A DNA stretch of 29,538 nt. Origin: Candidatus Heimdallarchaeota archaeon. Its GTDB lineage: Archaea > Asgardarchaeota > Heimdallarchaeia > JABLTI01. The translations under genes and the position numbers were made by a program. This document shows positions 3,167-28,824 of this stretch, piece after piece; the first letter of the stretch is position 1; every line of letters begins with the position of its first letter. Location of the stretch: the NCBI GenBank assembly GCA_030614005.1, contig JAUWKS010000041.1, forward strand, positions 1-29,538. The letters run 5' to 3'. Under the pieces are notes generated by a model. That model did not search any database. It had not been told where the DNA came from and saw only the letters and a program-made list of their open reading frames with translations.

Positions 3167-4305
3167 ATGCATTACAGACAACTAGGAAAAACAGGTATAA
3201 AGACATCTATTTTGGGTTTTGGTGCCATGCGCCTACCTACATCAAAACCTGATGATCCAACGTCAATTATAGAAGACGAAGCAATAAAGATCATTCGTCA
3301 AGCTATAGATGGTGGAGTAAATTTCGTTGATTCGGCTTATGTTTATCATCGTGGCCAAAGTGAAGTCCTTGTAGGAAAAGCTCTGAAAGACGGCTATCGT
3401 GAAAAAGTTAGCATTATGACCAAGAATCCTGTAAGAAAGGTAGAGAAAACTGAGGATTATGAGAAACTTCTGGACGAAGAATTAGAGCGATACGATACAG
3501 AGTATATAGATGTTTATCTTTTCCATGGTTTAACTTGGGAACGATATGAAGAAAAAGTTTTGAAATTAGGTTTATTAGATAGAGCAAAAGCGGTGAAAAA
3601 AGAAGGGAAAATTAGACATATTGGTATATCCTCTCATGACAAACCCGAGAATATCATAAAATTGCTCGATACAGGGGAATTTGAAGTAGTTCTTGTGCAG
3701 TACAATATACTTGATAATAATAACGCAGAAGTAATTGATCATGCAGCAAAGTTAGGTATAGGAGTTATTATAATGGGCCCCGTAGCTGGTGGAAGATTAG
3801 CTTTGGAACCCCCTGAGGAATTAACAGAATATCTTGCACCCGGAAAAGAAACATTCGTAGATTTAGCTTTCAGACATGTTTGGAGCAACCCTAATGTTTC
3901 TATCGCACTCTCAGTATGGGCGATGAAGATATGGTTACAACAAATCTGGAACTTGCTACTAATGAGATTATCACATTAACTGATGCCGAGAAAGAGCATG
4001 TCAAAATAATTGGAGATACTTACAAAAAATTATCTGATTTGATTTGCACTCAATGTGGCTATTGCGAACCGTGCGAACAAGAAGTAAATATCAAACAATC
4101 TCTCAAACAATTAATTCACTGGGACGTCTACAAATGGGATATGGCCAAGAGATATTACAATATGATAGGTAAATCACCCATGTTCCCTGGAAAGAATGCA
4201 ACAGCCTGTACAGAATGTGGTGAATGTGAAGAAAAGTGCCCACAAGGGATACCAATTATTGAGAAATTAAAGGAAGCACATGAAAAACTAGCTATTAAGG
4301 AATAA
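3167..4305 (+). CDS. Aldo/keto reductase with C-terminal 4Fe-4S dicluster domain; one frameshift at about 3914
   Basis: GFGAMRLP, DSAYVY, MTKN, YLFHG (D/Y/K/H tetrad); CTQCGYCEPC and CTECGECEEKCP in the second ORF. Restoring one G (tcaGgtatg) gives the conserved ALSGM and a 379-aa ORF joining track ORFs 3167..3979 and 3916..4305. Confidence 0.9.
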
Positions 4306-9623: not shown

Positions 9624-10931
9624 TTGCAAGAAAATATGGAAGAAATGATAGAGAAACCATGGTACGAAGATCCATTCATCCAAGAAATGATGGGATTGAT
9701 GGGCGCAAGATCAATGCGGAGTATCATGTCTAGTTTTAAAGCTAATTTAATCTATGCTGGTGAAAACGGCATTGCTGATGCTGCTCGATATCTCGATAAA
9801 TCACTCTATGATGATGAGAAGCGCATTTTAATCATCGCTGATTCCTTCACACAAAAATTCTTCACTAAATTTGAGAAAGGATTCAAAAGATATAATTTTG
9901 AATTCAGAATTTGGGATGGGTGTTTACCTGAAGTTCCTTATCAAACAATAGAGGAAGGAGTGAAAATTTGTGAGGAATTCAAACCTACTGTTATTGTTGC
10001 TTTAGGTGGAGGTAGTGTTATGGATACAGCGAAAATTGTAAATATTAAATACGAAAGACCTGAATTGAATCTATTACAAATTGACGTTGTGTCTGGAGCA
10101 ATTGGATTACATAGAAAAGTAAAGCATCTTGTAGCAATTCCGACAACAATTGGCACAGGGTCTGAAGCAACCACCACAGCTATTTTGAATGATACTCGCA
10201 GAGAACCACACAAAAAAATAGCCGTCACTTGTGACGATATACTACCAACTATTGTTATTTTACATCCCGATTTTGTGAAAAAGCTACCACCATATCTCAT
10301 AACAGGTACAGGGTTAGATACTTTTGCTCATGCAGTTGGTGCTTATGTATCAAACTGGAATAGTCCTTATACAACAGCAATTAATCTGACAGCTATTAAA
10401 GAGACTATTCATTTTCTACCAAGATTAATAAAATATGGTGTTAAAGATTTAGAAGCGTGGGAACATATGCAATGGGCAGCTTTGATGGCTGGCTTAGGAT
10501 TCTCTAATGCAATGCCTGGTATAGAGCATGCTTTAGGACATAGTTTTGGTGCAGTGATGAACACTCATCATGGTATGACTGTAGGTTTGTTTACTCCACA
10601 ATCACTAGCTTGGCAAGCAAAAGTAACTGAAAGGTGGAAGGATCTCTGTCCACTATTTGATTTGGACATTACAGGAATGTCACGACAGAAAGCATTAGAT
10701 GCTTTACTTCTAGAAATGCAACTCTTCATTCGAAAAGTTGGTGGTTTTGCTTCTGTCAGTGAATTCGAGAAACCAGAAATTAAACAGAAGGATTATCAAA
10801 AAGCAATTCCGCTAATGGCTGAATTTGCTTTGAACGACATTGCCCATCTTGCATCGTATCGTCCCGTAAAATTGAATCATTATAAGAAAATGTACGAAGC
10901 TGCTTGGGATTCAAAGAAACTAGTGTTGTAG
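9624..10931 (+). CDS. Iron-containing (group III) alcohol dehydrogenase
   Basis: LGGGSVMDTAK, IPTTIGTGSEAT, metal ligands in GLDTFAH, IEHALGH and THHG. Start probably a downstream ATG (9636). Confidence 0.93.
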   Translation: MQENMEEMIEKPWYEDPFIQEMMGLMGARSMRSIMSSFKANLIYAGENGIADAARYLDKSLYDDEKRILIIADSFTQKFFTKFEKGFKRYNFEFRIWDGCLPEVPYQTIEEGVKICEEFKPTVIVALGGGSVMDTAKIVNIKYERPELNLLQIDVVSGAIGLHRKVKHLVAIPTTIGTGSEATTTAILNDTRREPHKKIAVTCDDILPTIVILHPDFVKKLPPYLITGTGLDTFAHAVGAYVSNWNSPYTTAINLTAIKETIHFLPRLIKYGVKDLEAWEHMQWAALMAGLGFSNAMPGIEHALGHSFGAVMNTHHGMTVGLFTPQSLAWQAKVTERWKDLCPLFDLDITGMSRQKALDALLLEMQLFIRKVGGFASVSEFEKPEIKQKDYQKAIPLMAEFALNDIAHLASYRPVKLNHYKKMYEAAWDSKKLVL

Positions 10932-10938
10932 AGGAGGA

Positions 10939-13317
10939 TTGTACTGTAAAATGAGTGAAATTATAGGTTATAATGGAAAAATAGCGTATGTTGATTTAAC
11001 TAGACAAGAAGTAAAGATTGAACCGTTGAAAGTGTCTACCGCTCGAGATTATCTCGGTGGAGCAGGTCTTAGTGCGAAACTCATTTATGATCTTCTCGGA
11101 GAAGATGATTATAAAACATTAAAACAAGATCCTTATTCACCTGTTAATCCGTTAGTGTTTGCTACTGGACCTGTTACAGGAACAGATCGTCCTGCTTCTG
11201 GAAGATATTCTGTTTGTGCAATATCACCTTTAACAAACATCTGGGGTGAATCCACTTCTGGAGGCTTTTTCTGTATTGATTTACGAAATAGTGGATTTGA
11301 CGCAATTGTTTTCACAGGAAAAGCAGAGAAACCAATTTATTTGTACCTCTCTAAAGGAAAGTTTGAATTTAGGGATGCAAGCAAATTTTGGGGTAAAGAT
11401 ACTTACAAAACACAAGAACTAATTCGTAAAGAACATGATAATAGCAAGCTGAAAGTCGCTTGCATCGGTCCAGCAGGAGAAAAACTGGTTAGATTTGCTT
11501 GTATAATGAATGATGCAGGTCGTGCTGCAGGTCGTTGTGGTATGGGTGCAATCATGGGTTCAAAGAATTTGAAAGCATTCGCAATAGTTGGTTCTCCAGA
11601 TAATATACTTCAAACACCCAACAAAAAAGCAATACGAGATCTTCGAAAGAGTATCAATTTCATATTAGAGGATGACCTCGTAGGTGCAATTGTTCCAAAA
11701 GTAATGAATATCTTTGGAACGAATACCTATATGGATATGGGCTCTTTTGCTGGTGATGTTCCTGCTTATTATTTCACTGAAACCGAATTTCCAGCAGAAT
11801 TACTAACCTCGAAGACATTGAAAGAAGAATATCCAATGTTTATTTCTGGATGTGCGAGATGCCCGTTGCAATGTGCAAAACAAACAATAGTTCCAGTGAA
11901 TGATCAAGAAGTTGTTGTGGATGGTCCTGAATATGAGTCCGTTGCAGCATATGGACCTCTAACAGGAACATTTGATTCAAAACCTGTTATTCTTGCTCAC
12001 CACTATGGAAATGTCTATGGAATAGATACCATCTCCAGCGGAGTTGTTATTGCTTTCCTAATATATCTCATCGAAAATAATATCGCTACAGAAGCAATCA
12101 AAAAGCATCTGAAAGTAATCAAAATTGAAGATATTAGATGGGGAAATGGTGATTTAGTTCTCAAATTGATGGATTTAATCAATGAACGAAAGGGCATCGG
12201 TGATCTTCTAGCAGAAGGAACGAGAATAATGGCTGAAAAATTAGGCGTAGATCCAGAGCTAGCTGCACATGTAAAAGGACTAGAAATACCTATGCATGAC
12301 GCTCGAGCATATGCCGGACAAGCTTTATCTTATATGACTGCTTGCTGTGGAGCAAACCACCAAAAATGTGATTGGTTCCAAGTAGAAACACAGTCAATCT
12401 CCTTCCCTGAATATAAAATTAATCCAGGTGATAGGTTTGATATTACAGGTAGAGAAGAAGGTGTAATTGCTTTTCAAGATATTCGAGCGATTGATGACTC
12501 TGCAGTGACTTGTGATTTTGAAACACCACCAAAATTCAGTGATGTTGCTAAATATATTTCATATGCAACAGATTTCAAATACACACCTAAAATGCTTCTG
12601 CAAGTAGGAGAGCGAATGACCAACATTAAACGTTTGATTTCATGCAATTTAGGAACTACTCGAGAGGATGATCGATTGCCAAAAATTGCAACACAAATTC
12701 TGAAGAGTGGTCCAACGGAAGGTGTCAAACTTGATCTGGATAAAAATCTCAAAACCTATTATGATATAAGAGGTTGGGATTGGAAGACAGGCAGGCCAAC
12801 AAAAGCAAAACTAGAAGAACTTCGGATAATCGGTGACGACACAGATATCGTTGTAGAAGCCAAGGAACACAAAATCTCCTCTGATCTTTTTGGGGAAATG
12901 GAAAGACGCAAGGAGAAATTTATACCTCTTCTAATAGCTAAGAGTATTCCAACTGCAGATATGGAAGAATATCTTGGTTTCATTGCTTTGTTCGCTCAAT
13001 GTGATGAAGATTTCTATGATGATTTTGGTGAATTACAAGATGGTATTCAATTAGCAATTAAAGCACTCCCACAAGAACAATGGTATTGGCTGAAATTGGA
13101 CAAAGGAAACTTCAGTGCAGGTAGGGGTAAAATGGATAAACCAACCTTAACTCTGACATTCCGAAATCAAAAAGTCTACGATGGAGTGATGAATATGAAA
13201 CTCAATCCAGTTACAGCAGTGCTTTCAAATCGTCTCAAGGTTAAACCAATGGGTAAAGTGAAAATCTTTCAGAATTTCATTGGATTGTATTTGAACAAAT
13301 TCAACTTAAAGTTCTGA
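10939..13317 (+). CDS. aor: Tungsten aldehyde:ferredoxin oxidoreductase fused to a C-terminal SCP2-like (sterol carrier) domain
   Basis: YLGGAGL, GRAAGRCGMGAIMGSKNLKA, CARCPLQC, GPEYES, HVKGLEIPMHD, DSAVTCDF; AOR ends about aa 628; aa about 675-792 fit SCP2 (WLKLDKG..SAGRGKMDKPTLTLTF...KLNPVTAVLSNRLKV). Start probably ATG 10951; 7 bp after the ADH stop. Confidence 0.93.
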   Translation: MYCKMSEIIGYNGKIAYVDLTRQEVKIEPLKVSTARDYLGGAGLSAKLIYDLLGEDDYKTLKQDPYSPVNPLVFATGPVTGTDRPASGRYSVCAISPLTNIWGESTSGGFFCIDLRNSGFDAIVFTGKAEKPIYLYLSKGKFEFRDASKFWGKDTYKTQELIRKEHDNSKLKVACIGPAGEKLVRFACIMNDAGRAAGRCGMGAIMGSKNLKAFAIVGSPDNILQTPNKKAIRDLRKSINFILEDDLVGAIVPKVMNIFGTNTYMDMGSFAGDVPAYYFTETEFPAELLTSKTLKEEYPMFISGCARCPLQCAKQTIVPVNDQEVVVDGPEYESVAAYGPLTGTFDSKPVILAHHYGNVYGIDTISSGVVIAFLIYLIENNIATEAIKKHLKVIKIEDIRWGNGDLVLKLMDLINERKGIGDLLAEGTRIMAEKLGVDPELAAHVKGLEIPMHDARAYAGQALSYMTACCGANHQKCDWFQVETQSISFPEYKINPGDRFDITGREEGVIAFQDIRAIDDSAVTCDFETPPKFSDVAKYISYATDFKYTPKMLLQVGERMTNIKRLISCNLGTTREDDRLPKIATQILKSGPTEGVKLDLDKNLKTYYDIRGWDWKTGRPTKAKLEELRIIGDDTDIVVEAKEHKISSDLFGEMERRKEKFIPLLIAKSIPTADMEEYLGFIALFAQCDEDFYDDFGELQDGIQLAIKALPQEQWYWLKLDKGNFSAGRGKMDKPTLTLTFRNQKVYDGVMNMKLNPVTAVLSNRLKVKPMGKVKIFQNFIGLYLNKFNLKF

Positions 13318-16325: not shown

Positions 16326-17789
16326 TTGATTATCAAATCGTTTAAATACAATCCTTATTCCTTTCATCAAAATAAAAAAAATCCGAAATTAATTAAAAGC
16401 GCTAAAACAGTAATTCTCAGCACCACACAAATAGACCTTTCTAGGAAATTCTTAGTAGATATGGATTTGTTTTCAATGGAAGAAAGTAAACAAATAACTA
16501 GAGATAAATTCCCTATGGTTGGGAAAATAACTCAAAGAAATGATACCAGTTTATCATGTGAGAGAACTTTGTCTCTAGAAAGCGATCTCTATTTGGATCA
16601 TCATAGATTCAATAATACACCTTTTCTTCCTGGAGTAATTGGTTTGGAACTTTTTGCAGAAATGAGTAAAGTTCTTTTTCCAAATAAAATAATTCAACGA
16701 TTTGAGGATATTCACTTTCTTTCAGCAATTAGATTAAAGGAAGATAATCCCATTACTATTTACACGAATTTAACAGTTAGTGATGACATTGCTGATGTTG
16801 TGATTACTTCAACTAGCAAAGGTTCTTCGGATAACAAATCAAATTCTAAAGTTCATTTCAAAGCAAAAATGATTTTTGGTAGTCGAGAAAGAGAAAGTCA
16901 AAAGATACCTGTGTTAAAGAAATTACCATTGCTTACTGGAGAATTTATCTATCAAATATTACCTCACGGTTCCTCATTTCAAGTTTTAGCAGAAATAAAT
17001 AGTATTGAGAATGAGATGATTGCAGTCGGCAGTTTTCCAAAGAAACAACTTTTTGGTTGGAAGGTTAAAAAGTTATTAACTAATCCATTTATTCTCGAAG
17101 CGGGTTTTCAGGCCATTGGGTTAATGGATTTTATTTTGAATGATCGCACAGGTCTTCCATCAAAGATTAAACAAGTAACTTATTTTGAATCCGAAGATAA
17201 ACCACACTTCATTGTTGGAAGAGAAAATATTGAGAAAAGAGGTTTCTTTGATTTCAGTGTTCTTTCAAGAAAGGGAAATGTCCTAGTGAAAGTTAATGAT
17301 TATCAAATGGTGGAAATTAATTTCGGTGATACTTCTAGTATACTTGAAAAATTACGTTCTCACAGAATTCGTCAACTATTACCTGTACCGAAAAAAGCTT
17401 GGTTAGAGGTTATTGATAAGCAATTGTTTCTGGATAAATTGTCTCGAGAGCCTGATTTTGTTTCGACCTTTTTACGAACAGATGAAATAGATGAATTAGA
17501 GGAATTGAATAATAAGGATAAACAAGACCGAATACTAGAATTATTTGCTCTAAAAAGATCTCTTAGAATTGTTCTACTCTCTAGAAAGATGCTGAATTTT
17601 AAGTTAAAGAAGGATGAAACCGGAAAACATTACTGCTCTCACAAAGGAAAGCATGTTTATCTTACAAAGGTGGAAGAATCAAATTATCTTCTAGTTTTAG
17701 CGAGCCGGAAAAGAAAAGATGGACTCGATTTTTACAATAAAAGAGAGACAATCAAAGCAAAGATAGTAGCAATGATAAATAAAAAATAA
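16326..17789 (+). CDS. Stand-alone type I PKS/FAS-like dehydratase (double hot-dog) with degenerate C-terminal PPTase-like domain
   Basis: YLDHHRFNNTPFLPGVIGLE (DH His motif), LPHGSSFQ (HGPxFQ), NPFILEAGFQ (acidic residue E); tail FLRTDEI...ELFALKRSL...DGLDF resembles Sfp/AcpS motifs. Real start likely ATG 16461 or 16476. Confidence 0.8.
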   Translation: MIIKSFKYNPYSFHQNKKNPKLIKSAKTVILSTTQIDLSRKFLVDMDLFSMEESKQITRDKFPMVGKITQRNDTSLSCERTLSLESDLYLDHHRFNNTPFLPGVIGLELFAEMSKVLFPNKIIQRFEDIHFLSAIRLKEDNPITIYTNLTVSDDIADVVITSTSKGSSDNKSNSKVHFKAKMIFGSRERESQKIPVLKKLPLLTGEFIYQILPHGSSFQVLAEINSIENEMIAVGSFPKKQLFGWKVKKLLTNPFILEAGFQAIGLMDFILNDRTGLPSKIKQVTYFESEDKPHFIVGRENIEKRGFFDFSVLSRKGNVLVKVNDYQMVEINFGDTSSILEKLRSHRIRQLLPVPKKAWLEVIDKQLFLDKLSREPDFVSTFLRTDEIDELEELNNKDKQDRILELFALKRSLRIVLLSRKMLNFKLKKDETGKHYCSHKGKHVYLTKVEESNYLLVLASRKRKDGLDFYNKRETIKAKIVAMINKK

Positions 17790-23418: not shown

Positions 23419-23629
23419 TAATTTAGTCGTAATATTGCTCGTTAGCGACTAGAAGTTTAACATTTTTCACAAAAAAAGCACGAACTGTTTTGCTGAGCAT
23501 ATCAAGTATTTAAATACTGCCTATTATTAAGTATAGTTAATTTGATTTAATTCTAAATCAGGAAAAAAGTTAGTATTATTCAATTTCAATTATTATTTAG
23601 AAAAAATGAATAGTATTCAGTACAAACTA

Positions 23630-23635
23630 GGAGGT
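23630..23635 (+). promoter_or_regulatory. Shine-Dalgarno sequence for the second aor
   Basis: GGAGGT 9 nt upstream of in-frame TTG at 23645 (giving MFGKILRVDL, typical AOR N-terminus). Confidence 0.55.
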
Positions 23636-23644
23636 TCGATAATA

Positions 23645-25477
23645 TTGTTTGGGAAGATTTTACGAGTTGATTTAAGCTCTCAAAGTTATAAAGTTGAAGA
23701 TCTCAAGGAAGAGATAGCAAGGAAATACCTCGGTGGACGAGGTTTAGGAGTAAGAATACTCTATGATGAATTACCTGCTGGAACTGATGCCTTATCACCA
23801 GAAAACATAATGGTCATTGCTGCAGGCCCACTAACAGGTACAAAAACACCTAGTGGTAGTAGATATGAAGTAGTGACAAAAAGCCCATTAACTGGTACTA
23901 TTGCAACTAGCAATTCTGGTGGTTCATGGGGAATTCATTTACGGCGAAGTGGGTATGATGCCCTTGTTTTGAAAGGAAAAGCAAAGAAACCTACTTATTT
24001 ATGGATATTCAATGGAAAAGTTGAATTCAAGAGTGCAGAAAAACTTTGGGGAAAAGTTGTTTCTGAAGTTGACACAGAGATTCGAGCAGAAACCCATGAC
24101 AATGCAAAAGTTTTACAAATTGGCATAGCAGGTGAACAACAGACCCTTACAGCAGCTATTATGAATGAGAAATTTAGAGCTGCAGGCAGAGGAGGAGTTG
24201 GAGCTGTCCTAGGAAGCAAGAATCTGAAAGCAATTGCTGTCCGAGGAGATAATAAAATCGAAGCAAAAAATCCTGACGAATTGAAAAAAGGCAATGATCA
24301 AGCACTTGAGAATATGGAGAAGTGTGCTGTAACTAAGAAAGATGGATTGTTGCATACACTAGGTACTTCAGTTTTGACCAATGTCATTAACGATTCTGGA
24401 ATTTATCCTACAAGAAACTTTCAATCTGGCGTTTTTGAACATGCAGCAGATATCTCTGGCGAGAAGATGAAAGACACTATTCTCAAAAAAGCAAAAGCTT
24501 GCTTCGGTTGTCCAATGTTCTGTGGTAGATGGGTAGAATTAGAGGAAGCAACATTTGCTGGGAAGAAATATCCCAAAGTAGAAGGTGAAAGTCTCGAATA
24601 TGAAAGTAGTTGGGCTTTTGGAGGACAATGTGGAATCAATAATTTAAATGCCATTGCTCGAGCGAATTACCTCTGTAATGAGTATGGATTAGACACAATT
24701 TCAACAGGTGTTACAATTGGTTTTGCAATGGAACTTTTCGAAAAAGAACTCATATCCAAAGAAGAAGTCAAATTTGATTTAAGCTTTGGAAATGCTGATT
24801 CGATGATAAAAATGGTTGAACAGATGGCACGAAGACAGGATTTTGGAGAAATTTTAGCAGATGGTTCGAAGAACGCTGCTAAGAAAATTGGAAAAGATTC
24901 TGATTATTATTCAATCCAAGTGAAGGGTATGGAACTTCCTGCTTATGACCCAAGAGGTTGTTTTGGTATCGGATTAAATTACGCAACTTCAAATAGAGGT
25001 GCTGCCCATACAACTGGCTATACTATTGCTGCTGAGATTGTTGGAGCTCCATTAAAAGTTGATCCACTTGATGCTAGCATTGAGAAAGTCAAATTACTCA
25101 TATTCTTTCAAGATCTTACCGCTGCTGTTGATTCATTTGGAACTTGTTTATTTACAACATTCGCAGTAGGTGCAGAAGAATTTGCTACAATGATATCTGG
25201 TGCGATGGGATGGACGGATTACACTGCTGACGAATTAATAAAAACTGGTGAAAGAATATATGCCTTAGAAAGATTGTTCAACAAAAGAGAAGGATTTACC
25301 AGTGCAGACGATAATTTACCAAAAAGACTCATAGAAGAAGAAATGCCAGATGGACCTATGAAAGGAAAGATCATGCCTTTAGCCTCTATGCTAAAAATGT
25401 ATTATGAGCAAAGAGGTTATGATGATAACGGTCATCCATCGCCTTCGAAATTGAAGGAATTAGATTTGGTAGAATAA
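23645..25477 (+). CDS. aor: Tungsten aldehyde:ferredoxin oxidoreductase (canonical length)
   Basis: YLGGRGLG, RAAGRGGVGAVLGSKNLKAI, CFGCPMFC, LEYES, QVKGMELPAYDPRG, TSNRGAAH, DSFGTCLF; track start 23606 is probably too far upstream. Confidence 0.95.
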   Translation: MFGKILRVDLSSQSYKVEDLKEEIARKYLGGRGLGVRILYDELPAGTDALSPENIMVIAAGPLTGTKTPSGSRYEVVTKSPLTGTIATSNSGGSWGIHLRRSGYDALVLKGKAKKPTYLWIFNGKVEFKSAEKLWGKVVSEVDTEIRAETHDNAKVLQIGIAGEQQTLTAAIMNEKFRAAGRGGVGAVLGSKNLKAIAVRGDNKIEAKNPDELKKGNDQALENMEKCAVTKKDGLLHTLGTSVLTNVINDSGIYPTRNFQSGVFEHAADISGEKMKDTILKKAKACFGCPMFCGRWVELEEATFAGKKYPKVEGESLEYESSWAFGGQCGINNLNAIARANYLCNEYGLDTISTGVTIGFAMELFEKELISKEEVKFDLSFGNADSMIKMVEQMARRQDFGEILADGSKNAAKKIGKDSDYYSIQVKGMELPAYDPRGCFGIGLNYATSNRGAAHTTGYTIAAEIVGAPLKVDPLDASIEKVKLLIFFQDLTAAVDSFGTCLFTTFAVGAEEFATMISGAMGWTDYTADELIKTGERIYALERLFNKREGFTSADDNLPKRLIEEEMPDGPMKGKIMPLASMLKMYYEQRGYDDNGHPSPSKLKELDLVE

Positions 25478-26436: not shown

Positions 26437-26837
26437 AACAAAACTTAGCAATCTATTATGTAGAAACATTAAAGCATATACAAGTTACTATAATTTAGAA
26501 AGTTAATATAAAAGTTTCATAGGAAAGAAAAAACATGAGTAATAATTGGCGAGCTTCAAATCGTGTTAAGCAGATCCAGAAATCAGCTATTCACGAGATG
26601 ACGCGATTATCAAAGGAAATAGATGATGTTTCATTTTTATCTTGGGCTAAACCAACTTCAGATGCACCTAAGCATATAAATGACGGAGCTATTAAAGCAA
26701 TTAACGAGGGACTTGTCGGTGGTTATTCTACTAATGCAGGAATACTTGAATTACGTCAAGAAATTGTTAAGAAACTAAAAAGGGATAATAACATTCCAGC
26801 AACGCCTGATCAAATAATTGTGACTGTTGGTGCTATT
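26437..26837 (+). repeat. Direct repeat A, right copy
   Basis: Counterpart of 20111-20511; continues as the intact aminotransferase. Confidence 0.9.
26462..26476 (+). promoter_or_regulatory. Putative BRE/TATA-like element of the aminotransferase
   Basis: Same 15-mer as 20135-20149. Confidence 0.4.
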
Positions 26838-27704
26838 GAAGGATTGATGGATGCCATTATGGCAATAATTGATCCTGGAGATGAAGTTATTCTACCAACA
26901 CCAACATATTCGACTCATATTCGTCAAGTTATTATTGCTTCAGGCATACCCGTGCTAGTACCTTTGAATGAAGAAGAAGGATTTGCTCTTGATATTGAAG
27001 CAATTAAAAAGGCGATAACTCCTAAAACAAAAGCAATTTTATATTGTTCCCCAAATAATCCTACTGGGACAGTATTTAGTGAGAAGGAACTACGACAGCT
27101 TGCTGCTCTTGCTCTTGAGAATAATTTAATGATTATTACAGACGAGGCCTACGAATATTTTGTCTATGATAATCATAAACATTTTAGTATTGGTTCTATC
27201 CCTGAAATGAAAAAAAATGTCGTTAGTTGTTTTACTTTTACTAAAACTTATGCAATGACAGGTTGGAGAATTGGTTATTTACAGGCAGATGATGCATTAA
27301 TACCTCAGATAAAAAAAGCCCACATACCTTTTGCTATTTGTGCTCCTGTAGTCTCTCAATATGCAGCTCTAGCAGCTTTGAAAGGTCCTCAAGATTGCAT
27401 TACTGAATTCAGAGATCACTATCTTAAGACCCGTGATTTAATGTGTGACCGTCTTGATCAACTCAGTTCAATCTTTCAATATGTTAAACCAGCTGGTTCA
27501 TATTTAATGTTCCCAAAAATAGTCCATGAGGAGGGGCAAGATTCCATGGCATTCTGTAAAAAATTACTGAAAGAAGCTAAAGTTTCTACAACTCCAGGTA
27601 TCGCATTTGGACCAACAGGTGAAAGTCACTTGAGATTATCATTTTGTGTTCCCGAAGAGCAAATTAATAAGGCATTTGATCGAATGGAAGTATATTTCAA
27701 ATAG
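26535..27704 (+). CDS. Class I/II PLP-dependent aminotransferase (AspC-like)
   Basis: GYSTNAGILELR, SPNNPTG, IITDEAY, FTKTYAMTGWRIGY (PLP Lys), PGIAFG, HLRLSF. Confidence 0.95.
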   Translation: MSNNWRASNRVKQIQKSAIHEMTRLSKEIDDVSFLSWAKPTSDAPKHINDGAIKAINEGLVGGYSTNAGILELRQEIVKKLKRDNNIPATPDQIIVTVGAIEGLMDAIMAIIDPGDEVILPTPTYSTHIRQVIIASGIPVLVPLNEEEGFALDIEAIKKAITPKTKAILYCSPNNPTGTVFSEKELRQLAALALENNLMIITDEAYEYFVYDNHKHFSIGSIPEMKKNVVSCFTFTKTYAMTGWRIGYLQADDALIPQIKKAHIPFAICAPVVSQYAALAALKGPQDCITEFRDHYLKTRDLMCDRLDQLSSIFQYVKPAGSYLMFPKIVHEEGQDSMAFCKKLLKEAKVSTTPGIAFGPTGESHLRLSFCVPEEQINKAFDRMEVYFK

Positions 27705-27729: not shown

Positions 27730-28824
27730 TTACATTCTGAAATTTTTCCCAAAATACATTAATTCATAGATTACTGTAGAGTCGCAATGTTCTTTCTTTC
27801 CATCTTTTTCTAAAACCAATTCAGCTTTTCCCACAAAACGGTGGTACCAAGGATTTTTACCGATTTGTTTGAGAAATAAGTGAGGACTATTTCCCAATAG
27901 TAAACTTTGGAGTACCAGATCTTTATTTCGTTGTAGATTCAAAGTAAATTTAATTCTTTCATCATCATAATTGAAGGCTAATAAATTTGAAACCATTTTT
28001 TTGCTCTTCGGATGTTTTTCGGTTTGTTTGTACGAAACAGTTAGTTTTTCGGGATCACTAGCTAAAATATTTTTCTTATCTAGTAATAATACGAATGGCT
28101 TTTGTTTGAAGTTGTATTCTTTTTTTGTAACCAAATTACCTGTAAGTAGAATATAATCACCAATGCGGGTTCTTGCCCAGTACCAATGGTTAAACAAACT
28201 GCTAGGGTCAGCATTTCCCCAGTTATGATCATGGTATCCATGACCTGTGATTTGCCTCTTTTTTCCATTAATAGTTAAAGAACCGGAAACTTTTCCAAAA
28301 GGAACTGAGGGAAACCAAGCAAAGTATTTCTCTTTCTCCGTTGCGTTTTTTTGAAAATAGAGGAACCCATTATCAGTTCTCTTCCCTAGTTGAGTCAAAT
28401 TTTCTAGCTTAATTTCAGCAACGATGGTTTTAGTGGCAGCTTTTATTTCATATGTCTTTAAATCTCCAATGAAATAATTATCTTTTATCCGAACCTCACA
28501 TTGTTCTTTTGAGCTTGAGTAATTTTTCTTCCACTTTTTTTCGAGGCAAAATTCTCGAGTAGTTGTACCCTTAGGGTCTGTATAATCAATTATAATAAGA
28601 GGAGTTGTCGGAGAATGAGTGTCAAAATATGGTTTTGGTCCAAAAATAATGACGAGCACTGAACCATCATCTAATTCTGCATCAAAATACCACCACTCAA
28701 AGTGCTCTTTGTCAATAGGAACCCTTTGACCATCTTCCCACATTTCGGGGATTTGTTTCATTCCCTCTTTCTCAAAGTGTTGAATTTTATTACCTGAGTA
28801 TACTTTAGGTTCAAAAGATTTCAT
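27730..28824 (-). CDS. CrtC/kievitone-hydratase-like (lipocalin-like fold) protein
   Basis: EWWYFDAELDDG and GHGYHDHNWG motifs typical of the CrtC/AttH/Svf1-type superfamily. Confidence 0.75.
   Translation of the reverse strand: MKSFEPKVYSGNKIQHFEKEGMKQIPEMWEDGQRVPIDKEHFEWWYFDAELDDGSVLVIIFGPKPYFDTHSPTTPLIIIDYTDPKGTTTREFCLEKKWKKNYSSSKEQCEVRIKDNYFIGDLKTYEIKAATKTIVAEIKLENLTQLGKRTDNGFLYFQKNATEKEKYFAWFPSVPFGKVSGSLTINGKKRQITGHGYHDHNWGNADPSSLFNHWYWARTRIGDYILLTGNLVTKKEYNFKQKPFVLLLDKKNILASDPEKLTVSYKQTEKHPKSKKMVSNLLAFNYDDERIKFTLNLQRNKDLVLQSLLLGNSPHLFLKQIGKNPWYHRFVGKAELVLEKDGKKEHCDSTVIYELMYFGKNFRM

Follow-up and report, generated by a model that had tools for sequence, protein, structure and literature searches.

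Enzymes of the aldehyde ferredoxin oxidoreductase (AOR) family are valued for the ATP-free reduction of carboxylic acids, and the known members are, to our knowledge, soluble proteins devoid of carrier domains. C-terminal SCP2 domains are found in alkylsulfatases, MFE-2, SCPx and HSDL2, where they are thought to hold the substrate near the catalytic site. We studied a stretch of 29,538 nucleotides (contig JAUWKS010000041.1, hereafter the window) from Candidatus Heimdallarchaeota archaeon, an Asgard archaeon of marine sediment (genome of 3.6 Mb, 90% complete, ~32% GC), in which two open reading frames (ORFs) of the same orientation occupy positions 9624-13317. The first encodes an iron-type alcohol dehydrogenase (Fe-ADH) and the second an AOR that continues into a C-terminal domain of predicted SCP2 fold, so that a familiar accessory domain is attached to an enzyme of the AOR family. 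This combination is new to the literature that we searched: no paper was found that connects AORs or tungsten to SCP2 or sterol carriers, nor any on Helarchaeota with AOR and ADH, Asgard papers name AORs only generically, and a preprint on Asgard lipid transfer brings up SCP2 only within a survey. An earlier note on this DNA, made from the sequence alone, had stated that no characterised AOR is known to carry such a fusion, and the searches agree with it.

The best solved relatives of the AOR core were 9mqx (362 bits with phmmer) and the Pyrococcus furiosus enzyme 1aor (360 bits, over residues 7-626), both broad-specificity AORs with the same three-domain core; FOR, WOR5 and BamB gave lower scores. 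The fusion protein differs from 1aor in a C-terminal addition of 160 residues (linker plus SCP2 domain), in ACC replacing NNR before the catalytic His and in a His replacing Tyr427, and from both structures in being always paired with an Fe-ADH gene. Its gene (10951..13317, + strand) encodes 788 amino acids (aa) plus the stop, arranged as an AOR core (residues 1-628), a linker (629-650; 12835..12900, +) and the SCP2-fold domain (651-788; 12901..13314, +). The linker is acidic (pI 4.1) and lies where canonical AORs terminate, and the domain that follows is basic (pI 9.3). AlphaFold2 domain bounds and the alignment to canonical AORs reduced the linker to ~22 aa from the ~45 aa first proposed, and the SCP2-like domain, first taken as ~118 aa, kept its assignment and grew to ~138 aa, since N-terminal helices outside the coverage of Pfam belong to the folded unit.

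Both Pfam families of the AOR core were found, AFOR_N, the N-terminal domain (10975..11592, +), with 250 bits against a cut-off of 29.8, and AFOR_C, domains 2 and 3 (11701..12828, +), with 319 bits against 27. The alignment to 1aor placed its 4Fe-4S ligands Cys288, Cys291, Cys295 and Cys494 at C301, C304 and C308, within a CxxCxxxC motif (11851..11874, +), and at C521 (12511-12513, +), all four invariant across two alignments of relatives. Glu313 and His448, which from the 1aor literature we take to be catalytic, correspond to E329 and H470, and the presumed pterin contacts Arg76, Asp343, Lys450 and Asp489 to R85, D359, K472 and D516. The three-Cys, distal Cys and E/H motifs that had been read in the translation were thus all retained; the position of P. 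furiosus Asp338 is Asn, as it is in the canonical paralogue of the window. The core is complete and, as judged from these residues, looks catalytically competent, and by family membership it would be a tungsten-type, ferredoxin-linked enzyme. The active-site stretch TACCGANH (12337..12360, +) aligns with TNNRGGCH of P. furiosus AOR and retains the equivalent of His448. The departure from the TSNRGACH-type motif that the note described is real, though it is not particular to the fusion: T[ACS][CY][CVM]GANH was present in 120 relatives, both fused and unfused, so that on the aligned sequences it characterises the Asgard AOR clade as a whole; its presence in AORs without the SCP2 tail leaves no ground for linking it to the fusion.

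The C-terminal domain is, according to its predicted structure, an SCP2-fold domain. Pfam SCP2 (PF02036) scored 14.5 bits on the whole protein, 17.8 on the tail alone and 18.2 in a further scan, against a threshold of 21.3; the HMMER check suggested earlier therefore stayed below the cut-off, and the SCP2 identity was borne out by profile and structure. A profile of ten tails, run against 1.84 billion representatives, retrieved only 14 proteins, which were either AOR fusions or stand-alone proteins of ~135-185 aa. The stand-alone Asgard relatives matched the tail profile with E values of 5.8e-18 to 1e-6, and five of the eight that were scanned passed PF02036 with 34-50 bits (P0017, P0019, P0020, P0025 and P0027); further stand-alone matches are annotated as SCP2 by their sources. 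These proteins (e.g., P0017, P0019 and P0020), with lengths of 135-160 aa, are the nearest sequence relatives of the tail and are Pfam-positive, but they are encoded by separate genes. The profile had no meaningful match among PDB sequences (best E 0.5).

AlphaFold2 modelled residues 650-788 with a pLDDT of 95.5 and a pTM of 0.88 from 28 aligned rows, stand-alone relatives among them; ten close homologues alone gave a pLDDT of 48.8. The model showed the order H-H-H-E-E-E-E-H-H-E-H, which is SCP2-like, the fold being defined as alpha/beta with a five-stranded sheet covered by helices. The best 45 Foldseek matches in the PDB were all SCP2-fold proteins (E down to 8e-7), among them AF1534, the C-domains of SdsA1 and Pisa1, human and yeast SCP2, MFE-2 SCP-2L and UbiJ. 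VIA-align superposed 112-124 residues at 2.6-3.5 Å, with Z of 12-12.8 against the alkylsulfatase C-domains and 11-12 against human SCP-2L, and the Swiss-Prot models of HSDL2, SCP2D1, MFE-2 and SCPx also matched. Language-model neighbours of the tail were SCP2 clusters too, which is a lead only. SdsA1/Pisa1, MFE-2 (SCP-2L), SCPx and HSDL2 likewise carry a C-terminal SCP2 fold on an enzyme with hydrophobic substrates; here, in contrast, the partner would be an oxygen-sensitive tungstopterin/4Fe-4S enzyme, and the domains share 12-20% identity. A complex prediction of the AOR core with the SCP2 domain scored 0.01, a value that speaks neither for nor against docking.

The fusion is real and conserved, and an assembly artefact is excluded. 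Ten full-length fused relatives were 78-87% identical to the window protein, and a search with the core only raised the fused total to ~25 clusters from NCBI, JGI, ENA and Logan, of 761-801 aa and 57-87% identity. They included a second fused subclade with 57% identity overall and 40% in the tail. Tail identity among fused clusters was 35-87%, and the final 40 tail residues were almost invariant within the subclade of the window; this conservation implies purifying selection. A pattern scan of genome contigs yielded only two loci, and a search of 399 species genomes of the phylum was more informative: ten carried a fused AOR, and the fused tail was present in 8 of the 11 other genomes of the window's family plus one genome of another family. 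DNA nearly identical to the locus occurred in marine-sediment and cold-seep metagenomes of several studies; no RNA dataset was among the sequencing runs listed for the sequence. Contigs from two independent studies spanned the junction between core and tail, each gap-free and with two substitutions. The fusion thus stood against the lost stop codon that the note had named as a possible source of it. A metagenomic protein of 185 aa, P0016, joins in frame the first ~95 aa of the ADH with the last ~105 aa of the SCP2 tail; either the whole interior of the ADH-AOR pair was deleted in frame or the assembly is chimeric.

The ADH-AOR pair is a conserved two-gene module. An orthologous ADH lay directly upstream of the AOR in all eight fused loci (including the window, L006, L007/L029, L010, L026, L027 and L028) and in all five unfused ones (L011, L012, L035, L036 and L037); these ADHs were 50-83% identical, and no related AOR that was examined lacked one immediately upstream. 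A search for further conserved neighbours across the loci found none, so that the synteny holds for the ADH while the other neighbours vary. The ADH of the window (9636..10931, +) gave 116.9 bits with Pfam Fe-ADH and 95.7 bits with ADH_Fe_C, and its translation shows GGGS, GLDTFAH, EHALGH and THHG, in which the Asp and His of the D..H, H...H and HH motifs are presumably the metal ligands, as in FucO. Its start is most likely the ATG at 9636, which gives 431 aa and matches its relatives. About 35 aa (9636-9740), with the pattern WYE-x-MGLMGAR-x-R-x-I, precede the canonical Fe-ADH start, and this extension was conserved in the four complete AOR-linked Asgard ADHs aligned (L006, L007, L011 and L012), down to 50% identity; it might serve to contact the AOR. 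The AOR starts at the ATG at 10951 (MSEI...), the start in every database homologue, and start and length were the same in ~20 of them. The true gap between the genes is therefore 19 nt, and the 7 bp given before belongs to a mechanically called TTG ORF. A Shine-Dalgarno-like GGAGG (10933..10937, +) lies 13 nt upstream of the AOR start codon.

Unfused AORs of ~625 aa and ~60% identity (e.g., P0051 and P0064) abound in Promethearchaeota/Lokiarchaeota, Helarchaeota and Hodarchaeota. They share the GANH variant and the upstream ADH, lack the SCP2 tail and, unlike the fused loci, often adjoin genes for beta-oxidation or acyl-CoA ligases. In three of the five unfused loci the pair had fatty-acid genes beside it: L011 with MaoC, a double acyl-CoA dehydrogenase and, immediately downstream, an AMP-forming ligase, and L012 and L035 with two 3-hydroxyacyl-CoA dehydrogenases each; a fourth had a stand-alone SCP2 2.2 kb from the pair. 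In those lineages, such a context would suit the stepwise conversion of alcohol through aldehyde and acid to acyl-CoA. In trees rooted on the other AOR paralogues of the host genome, the fused proteins formed two well-supported basal clades with the unfused majority nested among them. The approximately unbiased (AU) test rejected neither the monophyly of the fused proteins (p 0.116) nor that of the unfused ones (p 0.346), and for this reason a single gain and a secondary loss of the tail are indistinguishable. The AOR phylogeny called for earlier thus gave two fused clades in the free tree and left both constrained topologies standing.

The combination of domains makes greasy alcohols, aldehydes or acids plausible substrates. 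We propose, giving it slightly less than an even chance, that the SCP2 domain of the ADH-AOR-SCP2 operon binds a hydrophobic substrate or product and holds it at the AOR; the lipid binding, the hand-over of the ligand and the substrate class are inferred by analogy with the SCP2-bearing enzymes above, and the fatty-acid genes beside unfused orthologues and other SCP2-redox fusions of the genome support them indirectly. The NAD(P)-linked Fe-ADH would interconvert alcohol and aldehyde, and the ferredoxin-linked tungstopterin AOR would interconvert aldehyde and free acid without CoA or ATP. The basic SCP2 domain, on its flexible acidic linker, would bind a poorly soluble alcohol, aldehyde or acid of fatty or isoprenoid type, perhaps while at the membrane, and would keep this ligand beside the substrate channel of the AOR.

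As for the direction of flux, acyl-CoA dehydrogenase (PF00441) was found in none of 12 genomes of the window's family (64-92% complete) and 3HCDH was not found in the window's genome, so classical beta-oxidation seems absent from the family. Since the family shows no acyl-CoA dehydrogenase, the acid would probably not be fed into beta-oxidation, and reduction of acid to alcohol (an electron sink for reduced ferredoxin and NAD(P)H) or lipid remodelling would be as likely as oxidation. A strict link between the fusion and the loss of beta-oxidation was considered and rejected: genome G130, outside the family, has a fused AOR together with six acyl-CoA dehydrogenase matches.

Several observations weigh against delivery of a hydrophobic ligand by the SCP2 domain. 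The Pfam SCP2 score lies under the gathering threshold of 21.3 bits. The closest unfused orthologues (~60% identity, same ADH, same active-site variant) work without SCP2, so the domain is not required for the basic chemistry. Catabolism of fatty alcohols would lack an obvious continuation, because of the missing acyl-CoA dehydrogenase and 3HCDH. The nearest relatives of the ADH, at low identity, are methanol dehydrogenase, FucO and the ADH domain of AdhE, all short-chain enzymes, and the neighbours of the fused genes show no lipid context.

Most of these points also suit a pair that uses short-chain substrates, either ethanol, acetaldehyde and acetate or amino-acid aldehydes, with an SCP2 domain that is structural, serves oligomerisation or senses a ligand in regulation. 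The short-chain affinity of the ADH, the broad specificity of the relatives of the AOR core (1aor and 9mqx), the unfused orthologues that do the same job without the domain and the lack of beta-oxidation in the family all accord with it. We nevertheless consider it unlikely, about half as probable as ligand delivery, since the characterised enzyme classes with a matching C-terminal domain all act on hydrophobic substrates, the unfused orthologues are placed among fatty-acid genes, and the genome already has a canonical AOR for amino-acid-derived aldehydes. The latter is the unfused paralogue of the window (23606..25477, +; 623 aa, TSNRGAAH, 37% identity to the fused AOR), which is followed downstream by an aminotransferase gene (26535-27704) and is one of four other AOR paralogues in the host genome. 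The division of labour that the note had suggested from this canonical AOR fits such an arrangement.

A localisation role appears somewhat less probable still. The SCP2 domain would then tether the AOR to membrane, lipid droplets or surfaces where its substrates or its electron partner are located, with no hand-over of ligand. SCP2 proteins interact with membranes, and a basic domain (pI 9.3) on an acidic, flexible linker, with the fold established by Foldseek and VIA-align, accords with tethering; against this, no observation sets it apart from substrate delivery, and no membrane-partner gene is conserved beside the ADH-AOR pair. There is next to no chance that the fusion arose from a lost stop, a frameshift or a chimeric assembly in the bin, given that architecture and length are repeated in the ~25 clusters and the ten species genomes and that the contigs of two studies cross the junction without gaps.

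Ligand delivery by a fused SCP2 domain can also be viewed against the other SCP2 proteins of the host genome, in which SCP2 tagging of redox enzymes recurs, because an OYE/Pyr_redox reductase and two FMN reductases also bear the domain. The former (G000:C35, L045:4083-6479, -) is a 798-aa OYE + Pyr_redox_2 protein with a C-terminal SCP2 domain that scored 27 bits and gave an hhalign value of 90% to the AOR tails. The SCP2 + FMN-reductase proteins have 592 aa (G000:C84, L044:1834-3612, +) and 361 aa (G000:C59, L046:3141-4226, +), and a stand-alone SCP2 of 111 aa is present as well. An SCP2-like tail on a class-III aminotransferase (G000:C69, L047:3038-4771, -; 577 aa) is doubtful, with 19.5 bits and an hhalign value of 39%. 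It is conceivable, although we rate it as improbable, that SCP2 is a reusable tag that joins the tungsten AOR, the OYE/Pyr_redox protein and the two FMN reductases in a CoA- and ATP-independent network of lipid-like alcohols, aldehydes, enoates and acids. Such a network, perhaps with the class-III aminotransferase, could act as an electron sink for ferredoxin and NAD(P)H or contribute to the remodelling of lipids.

In one Asgard genus, the closest stand-alone relatives of the tail, of 139 aa, immediately precede genes for a radical-SAM activase and a PFL-like glycyl-radical enzyme of 787 aa, and not an AOR gene. This order was kept in three genomes (L032:5398-9112, L033:4226-6928 and L034:1942-5655, all -), and the glycyl-radical enzyme may handle hydrocarbons or lipids with a carrier of its own.

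Other genes of the window, and one of a related locus, are described for completeness. The window encodes a DegV-family fatty-acid-binding protein (1844-2725, +), a 487-aa polyketide-dehydratase-type (double hot-dog) protein (16326-17789, +) and a CrtC-like lipocalin-domain protein (27730-28824, -), which may handle lipids; none of them is conserved beside the ADH-AOR pair in relatives. Within 3167-4305 (+), a 270-aa aldo/keto reductase ORF and a 129-aa 4Fe-4S dicluster ORF overlap in different frames, possibly as parts of a single gene that has a frameshift or a programmed overlap. In one genome of the second fused subclade, the ADH is closely preceded by a 444-aa protein (L028:9983-11317, -) with a weak alcohol-acetyltransferase/condensation-type match (PF07247, 25 bits).

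The proteins compared here define a large Asgard-specific, ADH-linked AOR clade with a distinctive, uncharacterised active-site variant, and the fused members add to the view of lipid handling in Asgard archaea. An AOR with a built-in lipid carrier, if this reading of the SCP2 domain is true, would extend tungsten biochemistry to water-insoluble substrates and would provide a template for the biocatalytic conversion of fatty acids to alcohols. If the SCP2 domain were in addition a tag shared by a network of redox enzymes, the finding would bear on lipid chemistry in relatives of the eukaryotic ancestor.

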